Positions 1 through 23,585 of a DNA stretch of 64,000 nucleotides are shown piece after piece. The notes under the pieces were generated by a model, which made no database searches, had not been told where the DNA came from, and was given only the letters and a program-made list of their open reading frames with translations. Each line of letters begins with the position of its first letter. Within the stretch, counting starts at the first letter, position 1. This DNA is from Escherichia coli (GTDB lineage: Bacteria > Pseudomonadota > Gammaproteobacteria > Enterobacterales > Enterobacteriaceae): assembly GCF_003334305.1 (NCBI RefSeq), contig NZ_QOWS01000002.1, one strand, 5' to 3'. The position numbers and the translations under genes were made by a program.

Positions 1-64
1 GTGGCGGCCTCAGTCCGGAACAATTTGAAAACAAGAACCTCGCTTAGGCCTGTGTCCATATTAC

Positions 65-1244
65 GTGGGTAGGATCAATAAGAGTGGTTTGTTTTCAATG
101 GACAGAGTCATTCTTGATGACGTTCTATATTCATTGAGCCTACGATACAGAGTGAATCTATCAGAAAACGTAGTTGAAAAATTTATTGAAAGCGATAGCA
201 AAGAGAAGGTTGAACATCTCAGGAAGGAAATTGCTAGGTTTATCAGGTTTGCTAAAGAAAACTTTGATCTTATCCGTGGAGAGTTTATCGTTTTTGTACG
301 AAGAGAATCCTCTATTAAAGATTCGGAGAGAGCTAATGGAATTTTAGAAGATAACTCTGATACTAATTTCCTATTTCGATATCTCCCCCCTAATATTGCC
401 CGTCTGTATGAAAATAGACTATCCGTACAGAATATAGAACGTCTGGGCAATACAAATAAAATTCGGTTGTTAAACAGAAATGTTTTAACGAATGAAATTA
501 TGTTGAAAATTAAAGACTGCGAAAGCACGTATACAAATGGATATATGTATCAATATATAAATAATGCCATTGATAATGATGATGGCACCATATCTATGGA
601 AATTGTCATGGGAAAGCATAGCGGAAAAAAGTTATGAACGGTGGGTGCAGGGAGCAAAAAATCGTACAGTTCTCTTTCATTATAAAAACATTATTACTGA
701 TCTTAACCAAGCGCATTCATGCAGAGCGTCCCTGGGCGCATATTGCCCATTTCATGGAGAAATTCTTCGTAAACTGGATCAAAGGAATGAAGTTCAGAGG
801 GTTAAACTCTCTATTGACGTTCCATTTCTAGAGGGGCTTACTCCAAGTGAACTCTACAAAATTAGAACTGACTACGAATCGAGTTTTAATGCCTTCCGCT
901 CTGTGCTACGTGAAGCTGCGTATGACATAGAAGCAGAAAGTGACCCATATAAGAGGTAGCTGATAAATCAGCATTTTGTCGAGCGCATATGGGATGAAGG
1001 ATTGACCGATATTGAGCAAAAAATACAGACCTATAAGCGGAAAAGTAATAAAGAACTTTTTCTTAACATTGCGCCATCATTGATAGGTTTTATTGGGGCA
1101 CCAAATCCAGTGTCGTTGGCTACAGGAGCCTTTACGATTCTAAAAGAGGTTTTTAATATAACAAGCCACTCTTCAGAAATAAAGAGTCACCCTTCATATT
1201 TCCTTCTCATGACGTCAAAAGGCAAAAATAAATTTTATGACTGA
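65..1244 (+). pseudogene. Low-GC decayed coding region of unknown function: three collinear ORF segments (65-637; 564-959; 1002-1244)
   Basis: Segments 1 and 2 overlap by 74 nt in different frames near A-runs at ~620-660. Segments 2 and 3 share a frame and are separated only by one TAG at 957-959. Track starts at 65 and 1002 are GTG/TTG. Visibly AT-rich compared with flanking DNA. No recognisable motif. Confidence 0.3.
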
Positions 1245-1330
1245 AGCAGTAGAAAATATTGTGAAAATATATTCACTTAAGCAAAAAGGTTGAGGGGCTG
1301 CCGGATCTGTTATTAACGGGGAGCTAATTA

Positions 1331-1358
1331 CTTTGCCGAGTAAAGCAACTCGGCAAAG
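1331..1358. terminator. Perfect 11-bp stem / 6-nt loop hairpin between convergent genes
   Basis: CTTTGCCGAGT-AAAGCA-ACTCGGCAAAG. No clear U-tract on either strand. Confidence 0.3.
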
Positions 1359-1380
1359 TAGCATAGACTTGAGTGAATTA

Positions 1381-1899
1381 TTAGATTTTAACTAGTTCGC
1401 TAGTCTCTACTGAAGCTCTCAAATTAATGGCAGGCTCCTGTGAGCCAACTCGGTATGTGTAAGACTGAGGGTGATCTCTGGCAATGTCAATGAGATCGAT
1501 TAGAGCCTCAGTTGCTCTCAGAGCTTCATTTGGAAGTTCTCGAGGCTCGAAGCTACTGAGTGTGCCGGGCTTCATATGTGCAATCTGCTCATGCCTAATC
1601 TTTAATACTGGTTCTGCGAGTGCAAGGAACTTTTCAGCTGCCAATTTCACAGCCTCTGGTGAAGCAGAATACGAGCCGCGTTTCAAAAACATTGATACAG
1701 ATCTCACATCTTTCCTTTTATCCGCAAGACGCGCTAAACGGATCACCAACATTTCCAACAATGCATTGAGGGCTACCAACTGATTGGCAAGCTCATATCT
1801 TGTACTGCTATTAGTAAGGCCTTCCATCAACCGCTGATACGTATAGATGGTTGTTAGGATATGCCATGCTTCTGCTTCCATTTCTTCAAGAATCGTCAT
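1381..1899 (-). CDS. Hypothetical 172-aa protein; possible HEPN-like R-x5-H motif (KIRHEQIAH)
   Basis: Clean ORF, convergent with the upstream decayed ORFs. AT-rich promoter-like region 1900-2217 is shared divergently with the GTPase gene. Family assignment is inference only. Confidence 0.5.
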   Translation of the reverse strand: MTILEEMEAEAWHILTTIYTYQRLMEGLTNSSTRYELANQLVALNALLEMLVIRLARLADKRKDVRSVSMFLKRGSYSASPEAVKLAAEKFLALAEPVLKIRHEQIAHMKPGTLSSFEPRELPNEALRATEALIDLIDIARDHPQSYTYRVGSQEPAINLRASVETSELVKI

Positions 1900-2253
1900 A
1901 AATACTCCACAATGGTCTGATAGTTATCATGCAGATATCTAAATAACCAATTTAAACTAATTTTATAATTCAACACGTAGCACATGATACTGAATCACTA
2001 CGTATAAATTAGATACTTTAGGATTTTATTTGGACAAGCCCGCCCCGGAAGACAATTCTACCTTAGTGTATATAAGGACCGCTTATGGCACAGAGCGGAC
2101 TGTCAGATGAGGTTTAGTTCTGTACTAATGAGCCGATACAAATTAGCTGCATATACCTGCATTCCAAATAATTTTAGGCAGATATTATCTCCGTGAGTCC
2201 CCTGCCACCTTTCCGGTGTGCGGGGTTTTGTCTTTTTCACCGGGAATACATGT

Positions 2254-3126
2254 ATGAATCCGTCTGATGCCATTGAGGCAATTGAAAAACCGCTCTCCTC
2301 CCTGCCTTACTCGCTTTCCCGTCACATCCTGGAACATCTGCGCAAACTCACCAGTCACGAACCCGTGATTGGCATTATGGGTAAAAGCGGGGCCGGTAAA
2401 TCCTCACTCTGTAATGCACTGTTTCAGGGGGAGGTCACCCCGGTCAGTGATGTTCACGCCGGCACCCGAGAAGTACGGCGCTTCCGTCTGAGTGGCCATG
2501 GTCACAGCATGGTTATCACTGACCTGCCCGGGGTGGGCGAGAGCCGGGACAGGGATGCAGAGTATGAAGCCCTGTACCGTGACATTCTGCCTGAACTTGA
2601 CCTGGTACTGTGGCTGATTAAAGCCGATGACCGTGCCCTGTCTGTGGATGAGTATTTCTGGCGACACATCCTGCACCGGGGACATCAGCAGGTGCTGTTT
2701 GTGGTGACGCAGGCCGACAAAACGGAGCCCTGCCATGAATGGGATATGGCCGGCATTCAGCCTTCTCCCGCACAGGCACAGAACATTCGGGAGAAAACGG
2801 AGGCGGTATTCCGTCTGTTCCGGCCCGTACGTCCGGTTGTTGCCGTATCGGCCCGCACCGGCTGGGAACTGGATACGCTGGTCAGTGCGCTAATGACAGC
2901 ACTTCCCGACCATGCCGCCAGTCCCCTGATGACCCGCCTGCAGGACGAGCTGCGCACGGAATCTGTCCGCGCTCAGGCCCGTGAACAGTTTACCGGTGCG
3001 GTGGATCGGATATTTGACACGGCGGAGAGCGTCTGTGTTGCCTCTGTTGCCCGTACGGTTCTGCGTGCCGTCCGTGACACGGTGGTCTCTGTTGCCCGCG
3101 CTGTATGGAACTGGATTTTCTTCTGA
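2254..3126 (+). CDS. yeeP: YeeP/YkfA-family P-loop GTPase
   Basis: Walker A GKSGAGKSS near the N-terminus; recognised as the GTPase that precedes flu in CP4-44-like islands. Start moved to ATG 2254 (MNPSDAIEAIEK); track ORF begins at GTG 2218. Confidence 0.8.
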   Translation: MNPSDAIEAIEKPLSSLPYSLSRHILEHLRKLTSHEPVIGIMGKSGAGKSSLCNALFQGEVTPVSDVHAGTREVRRFRLSGHGHSMVITDLPGVGESRDRDAEYEALYRDILPELDLVLWLIKADDRALSVDEYFWRHILHRGHQQVLFVVTQADKTEPCHEWDMAGIQPSPAQAQNIREKTEAVFRLFRPVRPVVAVSARTGWELDTLVSALMTALPDHAASPLMTRLQDELRTESVRAQAREQFTGAVDRIFDTAESVCVASVARTVLRAVRDTVVSVARAVWNWIFF

Positions 3127-3244
3127 ACAGTCTGCCAGGGAAATGCCTGATAACATTACGTTAACCAACTGAAAACATGACACAAACCCCTCATACTCCT
3201 CCTGTTTCTCTTGCGTGACCGCCTTGTCGTTAATAGAATAAAAC

Positions 3245-3280
3245 GATCGATAAAACAGGTATCGATCGTTACTATCGATC
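3245..3280 (+). promoter_or_regulatory. Three clustered GATC sites upstream of flu: candidate Dam/OxyR phase-variation switch of agn43
   Basis: GATC at 3245, 3264 and 3277, ~220-250 bp upstream of the flu start codon, matching the known agn43 arrangement. Confidence 0.6.
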
Positions 3281-3497
3281 ATTTATAGTGGTTAATGGTC
3301 TGCGAAAAGGCAGCTGAATCTCTTCATCATGCAGAACGGAATTGCACACAACGGACTGATACTTCTCTGGCGGATGAGAGAGGGGAAGCATTTATGTCCG
3401 GGAAAAACCACTTTATCTGACCATGCTGTTTTGTACCTGCCGGTATCCACTTTTGTGGGTACCGGCTTTTTTATTCACCCTCTGTAAGGAAAAGCTG

Positions 3498-6344
3498 ATG
3501 AAACGACATCTGAACACCAGCTACAGGCTGGTATGGAATCACATTACGGGCACCCTGGTGGTGGCTTCCGAACTGGCCCGCTCACGGGGAAAACGCGCCG
3601 GTGTGGCGGTTGTGCTGTCTCTTGCTGCTGTCACATCAGTCCCGGCACTGGCTGCTGACACGGTTGTACAGGCGGGAGAAACCGTGAACGGCGGAACACT
3701 GACAAATCATGACAACCAGATTGTTCTCGGTACGGCCAACGGAATGACCATCAGTACCGGTCTGGAGTATGGGCCGGATAACGAGGCCAATACCGGCGGG
3801 CAATGGATACAAAATGGCGGTATCGCCAACAACACTACTGTCACCGGTGGTGGTCTTCAGAGAGTGAATGCCGGAGGAAGCGTTTCAGACACGGTTATCA
3901 GTGCCGGAGGCGGACAGAGCCTTCAGGGGCAGGCAGTGAATACCACTCTGAACGGCGGTGAGCAGTGGGTACATGAAGGCGGGATTGCAACGGGTACCGT
4001 CATTAATGAGAAGGGCTGGCAGGCCGTCAAATCCGGCGCAATGGCAACCGACACGGTTGTGAATACCGGCGCGGAAGGGGGACCGGATGCAGAAAATGGT
4101 GATACCGGGCAGTTTGTTCGCGGAAATGCCGTACGTACCACTATCAATGAAAATGGTCGTCAGATTGTGGCTGCTGAAGGAACGGCAAATACCACTGTGG
4201 TTTATGCCGGCGGCGACCAGACTGTACATGGTCACGCACTGGATACCACGCTGAATGGGGGGTACCAGTATGTGCACAACGGCGGTACGGCGTCTGGCAC
4301 TGTTGTAAACAGTGACGGCTGGCAGATTATCAAGGAAGGTGGTCTGGCGGATTTCACCACCGTTAACCAGAAAGGCAAACTGCAGGTGAACGCCGGTGGT
4401 ACCGCCACACATGTCACCCTGAAACAGGGTGGAGCACTGGTTACCAGTACTGCAGCAACGGTTCTTGGCAGCAACCGTCTGGGCAATTTCGCGGTGGAAA
4501 ACGGTAAGGCTGACGGCGTTGTTCTGGAGTCCGGTGGTCGCCTGGATGTACTGGAGGGCCATTCAGCCTGGAAAACACTGGTGGATGACGGCGGTACCCT
4601 GGCAGTGTCTGCCGGTGGTAAGGCAACAGATGTCACCATGACATCCGGTGGTGCCCTGATTGCAGACAGTGGTGCCACTGTTGAGGGGACCAATGCCAGC
4701 GGTAAGTTCAGTATTGATGGCACATCCGGTCAGGCCAGCGGACTGCTGCTGGAAAATGGCGGCAGCTTTACGGTTAATGCCGGGGGACAGGCCAGCAACA
4801 CCACTGTCGGACATCGTGGAACACTGATGCTGGCTGCCGGGGGAAGTCTGAGTGGCAGAACACAGCTCAGTAAAGGCGCCAGCATGGTACTGAATGGTGA
4901 TGTGGTCAGTACCGGCGATATTGTTAACGCAGGGGAGATTTACTTTGACAATCAGACAACACCGGATGCCGTACTGAGCCGTGCTGTTGCAAAAGGCAAC
5001 GCCCCGGTAACGTTCCATAAACTGACAACCAGTAACCTCACCGGTCAGGGTGGCACCATCAATATGCGTGTTAGCCTTGATGGCAGTAATGCCTCTGACC
5101 AGCTGGTGATTAATGGTGGTCAGGCAACCGGCAAAACCTGGCTTGCGTTTACAAATGTCGGAAACAGTAACCTCGGGGTGGCAACCTCCGGACAGGGTAT
5201 CCGGGTTGTGGATGCACAGAATGGTGCCACCACAGAAGAAGGTGCATTTGCCCTGAGTCGCCCGCTTCAGGCCGGCGCCTTTAACTACACCCTGAACCGT
5301 GACAGCGATGAAGACTGGTACCTGCGCAGTGAAAATGCTTATCGTGCTGAAGTCCCCCTGTATGCCTCCATGCTGACACAGGCAATGGACTATGACCGGA
5401 TTCTGGCAGGCTCCCGCAGCCATCAGACCAGTGTAAGCGGTGAAAATAACAGCGTCCGTCTCAGCATTCAGGGCGGTCATCTCGGTCACGATAACAACGG
5501 CGGTATTGCCCGTGGAGCCACGCCGGAAAGCAGCGGCAGCTATGGCTTCGTCCGTCTGGAGGGTGACCTGCTCAGAACAGAGGTTGCCGGTATGTCTCTG
5601 ACGACAGGGGTGTATGGTGCTGCAGGCCATTCTTCCGTTGATGTTAAGGATGATGACGGTTCCCGCGCCGGCACGGTCCGGGATGATGCCGGCAGCCTGG
5701 GCGGATACCTGAATCTGACACACACGTCCTCCGGCCTGTGGGCTGACATTGTGGCACAGGGAACCCGCCACAGCATGAAAGCGTCATCGGACAATAACGA
5801 CTTCCGCGCCCGGGGCTGGGGCTGGCTGGGCTCACTGGAAACCGGTCTGCCCTTCAGTATCACTGACAACCTGATGCTGGAGCCACAACTGCAGTATACC
5901 TGGCAGGGACTTTCCCTGGATGACGGCCAGGATAACGCCGGTTATGTGAAGTTCGGGCATGGCAGTGCACAACATGTGCGTGCCGGTTTCCGTCTGGGCA
6001 GCCACCACGATATGACCTTTGGTGAAGGCACCTCATCCCGTGACACCCTGCGCGACAGTACAAAACACGGTGTGAGTGAACTGCCTGTGAACTGGTGGGT
6101 ACAGCCTTCTGTTATCCGCACCTTCAGCTCCCGGGGAGACATGAGCATGGGTACAGCCGCAGCCGGCAGTAACATGACGTTCTCACCGTCCCAGAATGGC
6201 ACGTCACTGGACCTGCAGGCCGGACTGGAAGCCCGTGTCCGGGAAAATATCACCCTGGGCGTTCAGGCCGGTTATGCCAACAGTGTCAGCGGCAACAGCG
6301 CTGAAGGCTATAACGGTCAGGCCACGCTGAATGTGACCTTCTGA
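3498..6344 (+). CDS. flu: Antigen 43 self-associating autotransporter adhesin
   Basis: N-terminus MKRHLNTSYRLVWNHITG with extended signal peptide, repetitive G/T/N-rich passenger, conserved C-terminal beta-barrel ending in F. Start placed at ATG 3498; 948 aa. Confidence 0.9.
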   Translation: MKRHLNTSYRLVWNHITGTLVVASELARSRGKRAGVAVVLSLAAVTSVPALAADTVVQAGETVNGGTLTNHDNQIVLGTANGMTISTGLEYGPDNEANTGGQWIQNGGIANNTTVTGGGLQRVNAGGSVSDTVISAGGGQSLQGQAVNTTLNGGEQWVHEGGIATGTVINEKGWQAVKSGAMATDTVVNTGAEGGPDAENGDTGQFVRGNAVRTTINENGRQIVAAEGTANTTVVYAGGDQTVHGHALDTTLNGGYQYVHNGGTASGTVVNSDGWQIIKEGGLADFTTVNQKGKLQVNAGGTATHVTLKQGGALVTSTAATVLGSNRLGNFAVENGKADGVVLESGGRLDVLEGHSAWKTLVDDGGTLAVSAGGKATDVTMTSGGALIADSGATVEGTNASGKFSIDGTSGQASGLLLENGGSFTVNAGGQASNTTVGHRGTLMLAAGGSLSGRTQLSKGASMVLNGDVVSTGDIVNAGEIYFDNQTTPDAVLSRAVAKGNAPVTFHKLTTSNLTGQGGTINMRVSLDGSNASDQLVINGGQATGKTWLAFTNVGNSNLGVATSGQGIRVVDAQNGATTEEGAFALSRPLQAGAFNYTLNRDSDEDWYLRSENAYRAEVPLYASMLTQAMDYDRILAGSRSHQTSVSGENNSVRLSIQGGHLGHDNNGGIARGATPESSGSYGFVRLEGDLLRTEVAGMSLTTGVYGAAGHSSVDVKDDDGSRAGTVRDDAGSLGGYLNLTHTSSGLWADIVAQGTRHSMKASSDNNDFRARGWGWLGSLETGLPFSITDNLMLEPQLQYTWQGLSLDDGQDNAGYVKFGHGSAQHVRAGFRLGSHHDMTFGEGTSSRDTLRDSTKHGVSELPVNWWVQPSVIRTFSSRGDMSMGTAAAGSNMTFSPSQNGTSLDLQAGLEARVRENITLGVQAGYANSVSGNSAEGYNGQATLNVTF

Positions 6345-6364
6345 CAGAACCATCGCCTCTTTGT

Positions 6365-6389
6365 GGTCCCGATCATCATGATCGGGACC
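6365..6389 (+). terminator. Palindromic hairpin just after the flu stop
   Basis: GGTCCCGATCAT-C-ATGATCGGGACC, contains two GATC sites; no strong U-tract. Confidence 0.35.
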
Positions 6390-6458
6390 CGGACCGGCGC
6401 AACGGATATTCAACGCCACATTCGCTGGCATTAACAATAACATGATATTCATCACGGA

Positions 6459-8981
6459 GTGACTATGTTACAGATAGTCGGCGCGCTGATCCTGCTGATA
6501 GCAGGATTTGCCATTCTTCGCCTTTTGTTCAGAGCATTAATCAGCACGGCTTCTGCGCTGGCAGGGCTTATATTGCTGTGTCTGTTCGGCCCGGCCTTAC
6601 TGGCTGGCTATATCATCGAACGCATAACCCGGTTGTTCCATATTCGCTGGCTGGCAGGCGTATTTCTGACGATTGCCGGAATGATCATCAGCCTCATGTG
6701 GGGACTTGATGGTAAACATATCGCGCTGGAGGCTCACACCTTTGACTCTGTGAAATTTATTCTGACCACCGCTCTCGCCGGTGGTCTGCTGGCTGTTCCC
6801 CTGCAGATCAAAAACATTCAGCAGAACGGGATCACACCAGAAGATATCAGCAAGGAAATTAACGGGTATTACTGCTGTTTTTATACTACCTTTTTCCTTA
6901 TGGCGTGTTCTGCATGCGCACCATTGATCGCGTTACAGTACGATATTTCACCGTCACTGATGTGGTGGGGCGGGTTGTTGTACTGGCTGGCTGCATTAGT
7001 GACGCTGCTATGGGCGGCCAGCCAAATCCAGGCGCTGAAAAAACTGACCTGTGCCATCAGCCAGACACTGGAAGAACAACCGGTGCTCAACAGTAAATCG
7101 TGGCAGACCAGTTTGCAAAACGATTACAGCCTTCCTGACTCACTGACGGAGCGCATCTGGCTGACGCTCATTTCTCAACGGATTTCCCGGGGAGAGCTGA
7201 GGGAATTTGAACTGGCAGACGGAAACTGGTTACTGAACAATGCCTGGTATGAAAGAAACATGGCAGGGTTTAACGAACAGTTGAAAGAGAACCTGTCATT
7301 CACACCTGATGAACTGAAAACGCTCTTCCGGAACCGCCTGAATTTATCACCGGAAGCGAATGACGATTTTCTCGATCGTTGCCTGGACGGCGGTGACTGG
7401 TATCCGTTTTCAGAAGGTCGCCGTTTTGTATCATTCCACCACGTGGATGAGCTTCGTGTCTGTGCCTCCTGCGGGCTGACAGAAGTACATCATGCCCCGG
7501 AAAATCATAAGCCGGATCCGGAATGGTACTGCTCCTCTCTTTGTCGCGAAACAGAAATACTGTGTCAGGAAATTTATGAACGCCCTTACAACTGTTTTAT
7601 TTCCGATGCAACGGCGAATGGTCTGATTCTCATGAAACTGCCGGAAACCTGGAGTACAAATGAGAAAATGTTTGCTTCCGGAGGGCAGGGACATGGGTTT
7701 GCCGCTGAACGGGGAAACCATATTGTCGACAGAGTCCGTCTGAAAAACGCACGGATCCTCGGTGATAATAATGCCAGAAATGGAGCAGACAGACTGGTCA
7801 GCGGAACAGAAATCCAGACGAAATATTGTTCAACTGCAGCCCGTAGCGTCGGTGCGGCATTCGACGGACAAAACGGACAGTATCGTTACATGGGAAATAA
7901 TGGCCCCATGCAACTGGAAGTCCCCCGTGATCAGTATGCCGGCGCTGTTGAAACTATGAGGAATAAGATCCGCGAAGGTAAAGTACCCGGTGTAACCGAT
8001 CCCGCAGAAGCGTCCCGGCTGATTCGTCGGGGACATCTGACTTATACCCAGGCCCGTAATATCACCCGGTTCGGGACCATCGAATCGGTCACTTATGATA
8101 TTGCCGAGGGTTCGGTTGTCAGTCTGGCGGCCGGAGGGATCAGTTTTGCCCTGACGGCATCGGTCTTCTGGCTCAGCACTGGCGATCGCGATGCTGCCCT
8201 GCAGACAGCTGCTGTCCAGGCAGGAAAAACCTTCACCCGCACACTGGCTGTCTACGTCACAACCCAGCAACTTCACCGGCTCAGTGTTGTTCAGGGTATG
8301 CTGAAGCACATTGATTTTTCGACTGCCAGCCCGACTGTCCGACTGGCTCTTCAGAAGGGGACTGGTGCAGGAAATATCAGTGCCCTGAACAAAGTAATGA
8401 AGGGTACGCTGGTGACATCTCTGGCACTGGTAGCTGTCACAACCGGCCCTGACATGATCAAAATGTTGCGGGGACGGATCTCCGGTGCGCAGTTCATCAG
8501 GAATCTTGCCGTGGCATCTTCCGGTGTGGCAGGTGGAGCTGTCGGGTCAGTGGCGGGCGGGATACTGTTCAGTCCACTGGGACCATTTGGTGCACTGACA
8601 GGGCGTGTGGTTGGCGGTGTTCTGGGGGGAATGATTGCCTCCGCTGTATCAGGAAAAATTGCCGGAGCGCTGGTTGAAGAAGATCGCGTCAAAATTCTGG
8701 CAATGATTCAGGAGCAGGTGACATGGCTTGCCGGCAGTTTCCTGCTGACCGGACATGAGATTGAAAATCTGAACGAGAATCTGGCCCGTGTTATCGATCA
8801 GAATGCTCTGGAGATCATTTTCGCCGCCGGTATACAACAACGGGCCGCGACCAATATGTTAATCAAACCACTAGTGGTCAGTATCATCAGGCAACGCCCC
8901 GTCATGGAATATGATGCATCCCATCTCGGCAATATGGTTAACCGACTGGAAGAAGCATTCCCCCCGGAGCTCCCGGCATAA
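6459..8981 (+). CDS. yeeR: YeeR-family inner membrane protein, 840 aa
   Basis: Hydrophobic N- and C-terminal segments; recognised as the gene following flu in CP4-44-type islands. Confidence 0.75.
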   Translation: MTMLQIVGALILLIAGFAILRLLFRALISTASALAGLILLCLFGPALLAGYIIERITRLFHIRWLAGVFLTIAGMIISLMWGLDGKHIALEAHTFDSVKFILTTALAGGLLAVPLQIKNIQQNGITPEDISKEINGYYCCFYTTFFLMACSACAPLIALQYDISPSLMWWGGLLYWLAALVTLLWAASQIQALKKLTCAISQTLEEQPVLNSKSWQTSLQNDYSLPDSLTERIWLTLISQRISRGELREFELADGNWLLNNAWYERNMAGFNEQLKENLSFTPDELKTLFRNRLNLSPEANDDFLDRCLDGGDWYPFSEGRRFVSFHHVDELRVCASCGLTEVHHAPENHKPDPEWYCSSLCRETEILCQEIYERPYNCFISDATANGLILMKLPETWSTNEKMFASGGQGHGFAAERGNHIVDRVRLKNARILGDNNARNGADRLVSGTEIQTKYCSTAARSVGAAFDGQNGQYRYMGNNGPMQLEVPRDQYAGAVETMRNKIREGKVPGVTDPAEASRLIRRGHLTYTQARNITRFGTIESVTYDIAEGSVVSLAAGGISFALTASVFWLSTGDRDAALQTAAVQAGKTFTRTLAVYVTTQQLHRLSVVQGMLKHIDFSTASPTVRLALQKGTGAGNISALNKVMKGTLVTSLALVAVTTGPDMIKMLRGRISGAQFIRNLAVASSGVAGGAVGSVAGGILFSPLGPFGALTGRVVGGVLGGMIASAVSGKIAGALVEEDRVKILAMIQEQVTWLAGSFLLTGHEIENLNENLARVIDQNALEIIFAAGIQQRAATNMLIKPLVVSIIRQRPVMEYDASHLGNMVNRLEEAFPPELPA

Positions 8982-9056
8982 CGTGTGTTCTGCTCCTTTT
9001 AGGTTTTATCACCTGATTTGCCAGTGTCATCGTCATGACTCAGAGAGGTAAATACC

Positions 9057-9293
9057 ATGATTCACCTGTTCAAAACCTGCATTATTACTGGCGTCATTCT
9101 GGGGTTAACGTGGTCTGCCCCACTCCGGGCACAGGATCAACGTTACATCGGTATACGCAATACAGATACGATATGGCTCCCGGGAAATATTTGTGCTTAC
9201 CAGTTCCGGCTGGATAATGGCGGAAACGGTGAAGGATTTGGCCCCTCACCATCACTCTGCAACTCAAAGACAAATATGGTCAGACGCTGGTGA
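9057..9293 (+). CDS. Small hypothetical secreted protein (78 aa) with N-terminal signal peptide
   Basis: MIHLFKTCIITGVILGLTWSAPLRAQ signal-like N-terminus; AGAGAGG ribosome-binding site upstream. Confidence 0.4.
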   Translation: MIHLFKTCIITGVILGLTWSAPLRAQDQRYIGIRNTDTIWLPGNICAYQFRLDNGGNGEGFGPSPSLCNSKTNMVRRW

Positions 9294-9511
9294 CCAGAAA
9301 AATGGAAACGGAAGCTTTTGGTGACAGTAATGCCACGCGAACCACAGACGCATTTCTGGAAACGGAGTGCGTGGAAAATGTCGCCACAACCGAAATCATT
9401 AAAGCAACTGAAGAAAGTAACGGCCATCGTGTCAGTCTGCCGTTATCGGTTTTCGATCCCCAGGACTACCATCCACTGCTAATTACCGTTTCCGGAAAAA
9501 ACGTTAACTGA
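9290..9511 (+). CDS. Small hypothetical protein (73 aa)
   Basis: ORF overlapping the previous stop (GTGA); alternative ATG at 9302; weak ribosome-binding site. Confidence 0.25.
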   Translation: MTRKMETEAFGDSNATRTTDAFLETECVENVATTEIIKATEESNGHRVSLPLSVFDPQDYHPLLITVSGKNVN

Positions 9512-9536
9512 TCCCTGAAGTCAGTTTCATGCTTCA

Positions 9537-9572
9537 GCCTCTGTCACAACGCGTGGCAGAGGCTTTTTATTT
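9537..9572 (+). terminator. Rho-independent terminator-like hairpin with T-run
   Basis: GCCTCTG...CAGAGGC stem followed by TTTTTATTTAT. Confidence 0.5.
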
Positions 9573-9589
9573 ATCAGGAGAAAACAGAT

Positions 9590-9823
9590 ATGCCGGGTTA
9601 CACAGAGTATGTCCTGGCTGAAGGATCTTTCTCATACGGGCAGGCGGTTGCTGTCATAACAGCTTACCGCAATGTGTTTATCCAGGATGACCCGGGAATG
9701 CATTTCCGTCGGATTATCCGCAACACGGAAGGTCAGCGACGCTGGCGCTGCCGGAATTCTGAACCCGATGCCGGAAAGGTGCTTAATACGCGGCTCGCCA
9801 GTGACGGTCTTCTCAGACAATAA
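9590..9823 (+). CDS. Small hypothetical protein (77 aa)
   Basis: AGGAG ribosome-binding site 9 nt upstream of the ATG; flanked by two similar terminator-like hairpins. Confidence 0.4.
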
Positions 9824-9846
9824 ACGTCATTCATTTCACCCATCAG

Positions 9847-22821: not shown

Positions 22822-23585
<764 letters not shown>

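Follow-up and report, generated by a model that had tools for sequence, protein, structure and literature searches.

An intact Escherichia coli agn43 allele in the well-known short form of the Ag43/Cah autotransporters

The stretch of Escherichia coli DNA analysed here (64,000 nucleotides (nt) of contig NZ_QOWS01000002.1, hereafter the window) carries an agn43 (flu) gene encoding an Ag43/Cah family autotransporter adhesin of 948 amino acids (aa), which an earlier reading of the sequence, the original prediction, had singled out for a passenger domain shorter than that of the K-12 protein. The explanation that we hold with high confidence is an intact, phase-variable agn43, encoding a self-associating type Va autotransporter of the short subfamily II type (class C4 in a four-class scheme). 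The observation was correct but ordinary, in that the feature is an intact agn43 allele in a well-known short form, not unusual and already known.

The open reading frame (ORF) listing of the window gave one long frame at 3423–6344 on the plus strand (973 aa), in which the ATG at 3498, codon 26 of the frame, opens MKRHLNTSYRLVWNH (MKRHLNT) and gives a product of 948 aa ending at the stop codon 6342–6344. The same frame from the MKRHL start is supported by the K-12 start, with flu of K-12 MG1655 (b2000) annotated as 3120 nt, equal to 1039 aa, with the N-terminus MKRHLNTCYR, and by RefSeq, where an identical 2847-nt coding sequence in E. coli strain A7 (NZ_CP028767.1, 1952868–1955714) is recorded as WP_053905624.1, ‘Ag43/Cah family autotransporter adhesin’. 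From its position 1949371 on, this A7 genome, which derives from orangutan faeces, agrees at 100% identity with the first 25 kb of the window. Both lengths in the original prediction, 948 aa for the window protein and about 1039 aa for K-12, therefore agree with the annotations, and the two ways in which the comparison could have failed, a wrong reference length or use of another in-frame start, were checked and neither holds. The gene and its parts, all on the plus strand, are as follows.

3485–3489, plus strand: Shine-Dalgarno sequence AAGGA, 8 nt 5' of ATG 3498, kept in all five aligned alleles.
3498–6344, plus strand: agn43/flu coding sequence (948 aa, 2847 nt), Ag43/Cah family autotransporter adhesin, assigned to the short subfamily II type.
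3498–3653, plus strand: extended signal peptide, aa 1–52, ending ...PALA before ADT, with Pfam ESPR (PF13018) at aa 6–51.
3654–4484, plus strand: SL (long arm of the L) beta-helix of SL1 type, aa 53 to about 329, with the self-association interface.
4485–5297, plus strand: divergent EJ2-BL2-AC1 cassette, aa about 330–600, common to Cah and the Ag43 of strain UTI89.
4920–5018, plus strand: stretch holding the entire net 91-aa difference, aa 475–507, opposite K-12 aa 473–598.
4986–5294, plus strand: autochaperone domain type 1 (AC1), aa 497–599, Pfam AC_1 (PF18883, E = 2.2e-18).
5514–6269, plus strand: autotransporter beta-barrel translocator, aa 673–924, Pfam PF03797 (E = 2.9e-19), 94% identical to K-12 without gaps.

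The order of the Pfam domains (ESPR, AIDA repeats, AC_1, Autotransporter barrel) is the canonical modular order of type Va proteins, the AIDA repeats giving seven matches within aa 100–455, of which five reach E <= 0.001. Against the NCBIfam equivalog NF033177 (auto_Ag43) the protein scored 1979 bits over a cut-off of 1200, aa 1–948 matching positions 1–948 of the 948 in the model, a profile match far beyond chance that places it in the Ag43/Cah family; K-12 Flu matched the same model in two stretches. The crystallised alpha-domain of UTI89 Ag43 aligns from window aa 52 on, and the identity to the solved structures 7KO9 and 7KOH argues for a passenger folded as an L-shaped three-stranded beta-helix. 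The RGD motif of K-12 Ag43 (aa 208–210, in FVRGDAV) is RGN in the window protein (window 4119–4127), and the second RGD, in the beta-domain, is kept at aa 879 (K-12 aa 970).

Pairwise alignment with K-12 Flu mapped all 91 missing residues to the passenger side, where the original prediction had put them, and in global and multiple alignments all net gaps fell between window aa 475–507 and K-12 aa 473–598. From the AC_1 domain on the two proteins are collinear at an offset of 91, and the C-terminal translocator, which the original prediction had described as intact, is indeed so, the linker and barrel (aa 600–948) being 94–95% identical to K-12 without gaps and 96–97% identical to O157 Cah. As aligned, the 91-aa difference corresponds to the C-terminal ‘bottom of the L’ beta-helix (BL) and its autochaperone junction. 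Protein identities in the multiple alignment changed markedly along the passenger: the SL arm was 87% identical to K-12 and 71% to O157:H7 Cah over aa 53–307 and, over aa 53–320, 88% identical to K-12, 94% to the long allele of strain ‘22a’ and 71% to O157 Cah, while the EJ-like region (aa 341–425) showed 67% identity to K-12 and 94% to O157:H7 Cah, the BL-like region (aa 426–496) 39% and 93%, and AC1 (aa 497–599) 59% and 95%, respectively, so that the whole cassette (aa 330–600) was 57% identical to K-12 versus 94% to O157 Cah. At the DNA level, identity to K-12 was 45–66% over some 800 nt (gene nt ~990–1790, window ~4488–5288) and 80–100% on both flanks. By these comparisons the allele is a mosaic, in which a K-12-like SL1 arm is joined to a Cah-type, long-diverged EJ2-BL2-AC1 cassette, and the K-12 protein is 91 aa longer because the window cassette is an alternative, long-diverged type that is also found in Cah of enterohaemorrhagic E. 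coli (EHEC).

The short cassette (window 4485–5297), counted at a required coverage of at least 80% in 5426 complete E. coli genomes, was found in 2943 of them, at 4127 places, and the K-12 cassette in 2383 of the same 5426, at 3122 places; the short form is thus no less normal than that of K-12. This very allele and its upstream region recur at 100% identity, rounded to one decimal, in seven complete genomes isolated from human hosts, one orangutan and one mountain pygmy possum, and agn43 is present as a single copy in strain A7. Since 948 is also the consensus length of the NCBI family model, and the short type occurs in more complete genomes, K-12 Flu does not represent the ‘normal’ length and a difference in length from K-12 should not be flagged as an anomaly.

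Two other accounts of the short length were weighed against an alternative cassette type. A K-12-type agn43 of 1039 aa that had recently lost about 273 nt in frame, leaving a derived and possibly impaired passenger truncation, would fit a net difference of 91 aa that is limited to one alignment region, but the DNA around the gaps is diverged over the roughly 800 nt where the flanks are not, the protein sequence of the gap-bearing region shows 93–95% identity with those of Cah and UTI89 Ag43, and a cassette of equal length is present in the 2943 genomes counted above, the 948-position NCBIfam consensus agreeing; a simple deletion of the K-12 allele was rejected on the divergence of the surrounding cassette and is extremely unlikely. 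That the length reflects a start-codon artefact, or a truncated or pseudogenised copy, can practically be dismissed. The in-frame ATG at 3423, 75 nt 5' of 3498, does give the 973-aa frame, but it would add 25 aa and not 91, and the conserved leader terminator hairpin at 3439–3466 falls between both ATGs; this hairpin, the AAGGA 8 nt 5' of 3498 and the starts of K-12 and RefSeq identify 3498 as the real start, and a start at 3423 was rejected on the same grounds. There is no frameshift within the agn43 ORF, and its product covers the whole of the family profile, down to the C-terminal ...NVTF.

Four passenger classes arise from shuffling of SL1 or SL2 with EJ1-BL1 or EJ2-BL2, SL1-EJ2-BL2 being C4, and BL1 exceeds BL2 by 53 aa, which makes up most of the difference in length between C1/C3 and C2/C4 (PMC6668479, Ageorges 2019). 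A later scheme recognises six classes in two subfamilies, subfamily II holding C2, C4, C5 and C6, with passengers of ~430 aa versus ~500 aa, and EJ1-BL1 combined only with SL1a or SL2b (PMC10058404, Ageorges 2023). The passengers of UTI89 Ag43 (7KO9, C4) and EDL933 (7KOH, C2), including the autochaperone, have been solved, and these alpha-domains are 69 aa shorter than those of Ag43a and Ag43b, with a C-terminal beta-helix of four rungs versus seven (PMC8993888, Vo 2022). The window protein has the short BL, and its cassette identities over aa 330–600 are those of the EJ2-BL2(-AC1) type; its SL arm is of the K-12-like type 1 (88% identity with K-12, 94% with the long SL1 allele of ‘22a’) and not of type 2, the type of Cah and CFT073 (71% with O157 Cah). 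On sequence grounds the allele is SL1-EJ2-BL2-AC1, subfamily II and C4 of the four-class scheme, the last following the class of the ~97%-identical UTI89 homologue, while the six-class scheme leaves C4 (SL1b, with H10407 as prototype) or C6 (SL1a).

The cassette also bears on whether the gene is instead an orthologue of EHEC Cah (C2, with an SL2a arm, a double high-affinity interface and fast aggregation) and not a UTI89-like SL1 allele. Its EJ-BL-AC part is 93–95% identical to that of O157 Cah, and PGAP labels some close alleles (96% DNA identity) ‘cah’, but class is defined by the SL arm, where the interface also lies, and this arm reaches no more than 71% identity with O157 Cah, compared with 88–94% with SL1 alleles and near-identity with UTI89. 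Orthology with Cah (C2) was rejected on this 71% identity of the SL arm and is very improbable; the assignment to a UTI89-like SL1 allele is retained.

Nine residues form the UTI89 self-association interface (G13, G30, T32, N60, D79, T80, T98, N100 and N137 in mature numbering; PMC8993888), and all nine are kept in the window protein, at precursor positions 65, 82, 84, 112, 131, 132, 150, 152 and 189. Because of this conservation a single interface like that of UTI89 Ag43 is predicted, with slow, moderate aggregation. What is shown here directly is the sequence, its architecture and homology, and how prevalent the allele type is; the secretion and processing of the protein, its aggregation phenotype and the phase variation of the gene are extrapolated from homologues: the protein would be exported by the Sec pathway through its extended signal peptide, the barrel would insert and the passenger be secreted, AC1 would nucleate folding into an L-shaped beta-helix with a four-rung base, and SL arms on different cells would associate head to tail in the manner of ‘Velcro’, which would lead to autoaggregation and biofilm formation. 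The self-association interface lies in the N-terminal SL arm of the passenger, the domain that the original prediction had named as determining autoaggregation and biofilm properties, but the difference in length lies in the C-terminal BL beta-helix and its junction with the autochaperone, so that length is not what sets the strength of aggregation (PMC8993888, PMC10058404). BL length is not its main determinant, the difference lying in the base and not in the interacting arm, although the shorter base of the L may change its reach or angle.

The result matters little beyond correct annotation, and otherwise touches only on a small point, the processing site of short Ag43 forms. In K-12 Ag43 the cleavage falls at 551/552 (PMC10058404, Figure 1 legend). 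The alpha-domains of UTI89 and EDL933 Ag43 are heat-released, with processing sites stated as unknown (PMC8993888). No Asp-Pro (DP) dipeptide was found anywhere in the window protein. Since D551/P552 lies in the segment that the short forms lack, and with no DP dipeptide present, short subfamily II Ag43 proteins, including that of the window, might be cleaved at another, unmapped site, possibly by another mechanism, or be left partly uncleaved, a proposal for and against which we see equal weight; if it is true, the adhesive domain could be held on the cell more or less firmly. This gap is a known one and no discovery. The published predicted site, after residue 482, corresponds to Y482/F483 in the window protein and to R482/F483 in UTI89.

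Phase variation by Dam and OxyR is established for K-12 agn43, and the region upstream of the window gene carries the corresponding elements.

3245–3280, plus strand: GATC triplet (Dam sites at 3245, 3264 and 3277) within the operator region for agn43 phase variation, where OxyR binds in K-12.
3243–3479, plus strand: agn43 5' leader, equivalent of the IsrC (IS102) small RNA (sRNA), Rfam RF00124 IS102, 64.8 bits against a gathering threshold of 46, over the full-length model.
3439–3476, plus strand: intrinsic-terminator-like hairpin and T-run just 5' of the ribosome-binding site, with a 12-bp stem (8 GC pairs) followed by TTTTTTATT.

In the alignment of five alleles, the operator block AATAGAATAAAACGATC...TATCGATC.TTTATA is kept in K-12, O157 cah and two other alleles. 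By analogy, Dam methylation and OxyR binding would compete at the three GATC sites of the window to switch the gene ON and OFF, together with an IsrC-type terminating leader. The base directly 3' of the third GATC, at window 3281 in the presumed OxyR operator, is A (GATCA) in the window and in strain 504838, and the equivalent base is G (GATCG) in K-12, O157 cah, 20AH011 and 22a. The IS102/IsrC span begins at the GATC operator and ends with the terminator hairpin of the leader (3439–3466), and K-12 isrC is annotated at the equivalent place, directly 5' of flu. The hairpin stem and T-run were invariant in all five aligned alleles, with a single loop base (window 3451) varying. The IsrC ‘sRNA’ is probably a prematurely terminated transcript of the agn43 leader, considering the hairpin, the Rfam match and the work of Wallecha et al. 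2014 (J Bacteriol), in which the leader is said to terminate transcription prematurely; a literature search for an open-access paper on the agn43 leader terminator found nothing relevant.

Nothing contradicts an intact, phase-variable C4 gene, but three caveats apply. The spacing of the GATC sites is unlike that of K-12, with a 13-nt gap as placed by MAFFT. A sigma-70 consensus promoter was not found upstream on the plus strand, by a simple strict scan that is on that account uninformative. The SL arm, at 94% identity to the EJ1-BL1 allele of ‘22a’, is closer to that allele than ‘22a’ is to K-12 (91%), and this match to an arm joined to EJ1-BL1 hints at SL1a, and hence at C6 of the six-class scheme.

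The genes that flank agn43 belong to a CP4-44-like module, made up of a yeeP-like GTPase gene, agn43, a yeeR-family gene, an antirestriction gene, JAB/yeeS, yeeT, cbeA and cbtA.

2254–3126, plus strand: YeeP-like GTPase gene, a conserved agn43 neighbour, annotated by RefSeq in A7 and present also in O157, 20AH011 and 22a; yeeP is a pseudogene in K-12.
6465–8981, plus strand: YeeR-family gene, the conserved downstream neighbour of agn43, with K-12 yeeR at the equivalent place.

The product of the latter gene, which is far longer than K-12 yeeR (1533 nt), is a protein of 838 aa named ‘hypothetical protein’ here and ‘YeeR family protein’ elsewhere, with a hydrophobic, repetitive N-terminal part; a Pfam search of it gave no significant domain (best match C19orf12-like, E = 0.039). 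Strain 504838 has a frameshift in its YeeR-like gene, and in O157 the position is taken by a ‘dynamin family protein’. The agn43 module forms the distal end of an island (window 1–15514) that abuts tRNA-Ser at 15427–15514 on the minus strand, next to ghrA; beyond the island the window consists of core chromosome (csg, mdo, flg, rne). The window starts at the 3' end of an IS3 transposase gene, and just upstream of the window the same island carries the fecIRABCDE ferric-citrate operon, of which fecI is frameshifted in A7. An IrmA family protein gene at 9057–9511 (plus strand) is annotated as frameshifted in both A7 and 504838, and ymdA at 23275–23585 (plus strand), 3' of the curli operon csgBAC, carries an annotated frameshift in A7 and is intact in 504838.

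Among known systems, AIDA-I and TibA share with the window protein the AIDA-type strand-loop-strand repeats and the type Va architecture (NF033176, E = 8.9e-52; TibA 4Q1Q, E = 2.2e-34), but its score of 175.8 bits against NF033176 is far under the 1200-bit cut-off and it is thus no member of that family. K-12 Flu (b2000, C1) resembles it in the start, the extended signal peptide, the SL1-type arm (87–88%), the translocator (94–95%), the yeeP-isrC-flu-yeeR neighbourhood and the GATC triplet 5' of the gene, and differs in its additional 91 aa, an EJ1-BL1-AC1 cassette, seven base rungs versus four, another GATC spacing and the D551/P552 processing site, which has no counterpart in the window allele. 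Cah of EHEC O157:H7 EDL933 (7KOH, C2), of 949 aa (E = 1.4e-284), has the EJ2-BL2-AC1 cassette and the translocator in common with the window protein at 93–97%, and both genes have a yeeP-like GTPase neighbour; its arm, however, is SL2a and not SL1 (71%), with a double, more extensive interface and fast aggregation (PMC8993888).

The closest of the systems compared is the Ag43 of uropathogenic E. coli UTI89 (7KO9, placed in C4 by both Ageorges 2019 and Vo 2022). Both proteins are 948 aa long, and window aa 52–613 match it free of gaps (E = 0) at ~97% identity, with 18 differences in 562 residues as counted from the 7KO9 match (window residue first: F206T, R208Y, N210D, E218K, G267D, H305N, K309T, L323T, A332T, K337N, T409I, Q431L, M445T, Y482R, V492A, N501D, A502S and S526R), none of them at the interface. 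The two have the SL1-EJ2-BL2-AC1 architecture in common with all nine single-interface residues kept, and differ in setting, the window gene lying in the serX (tRNA-Ser) island of an orangutan commensal strain.

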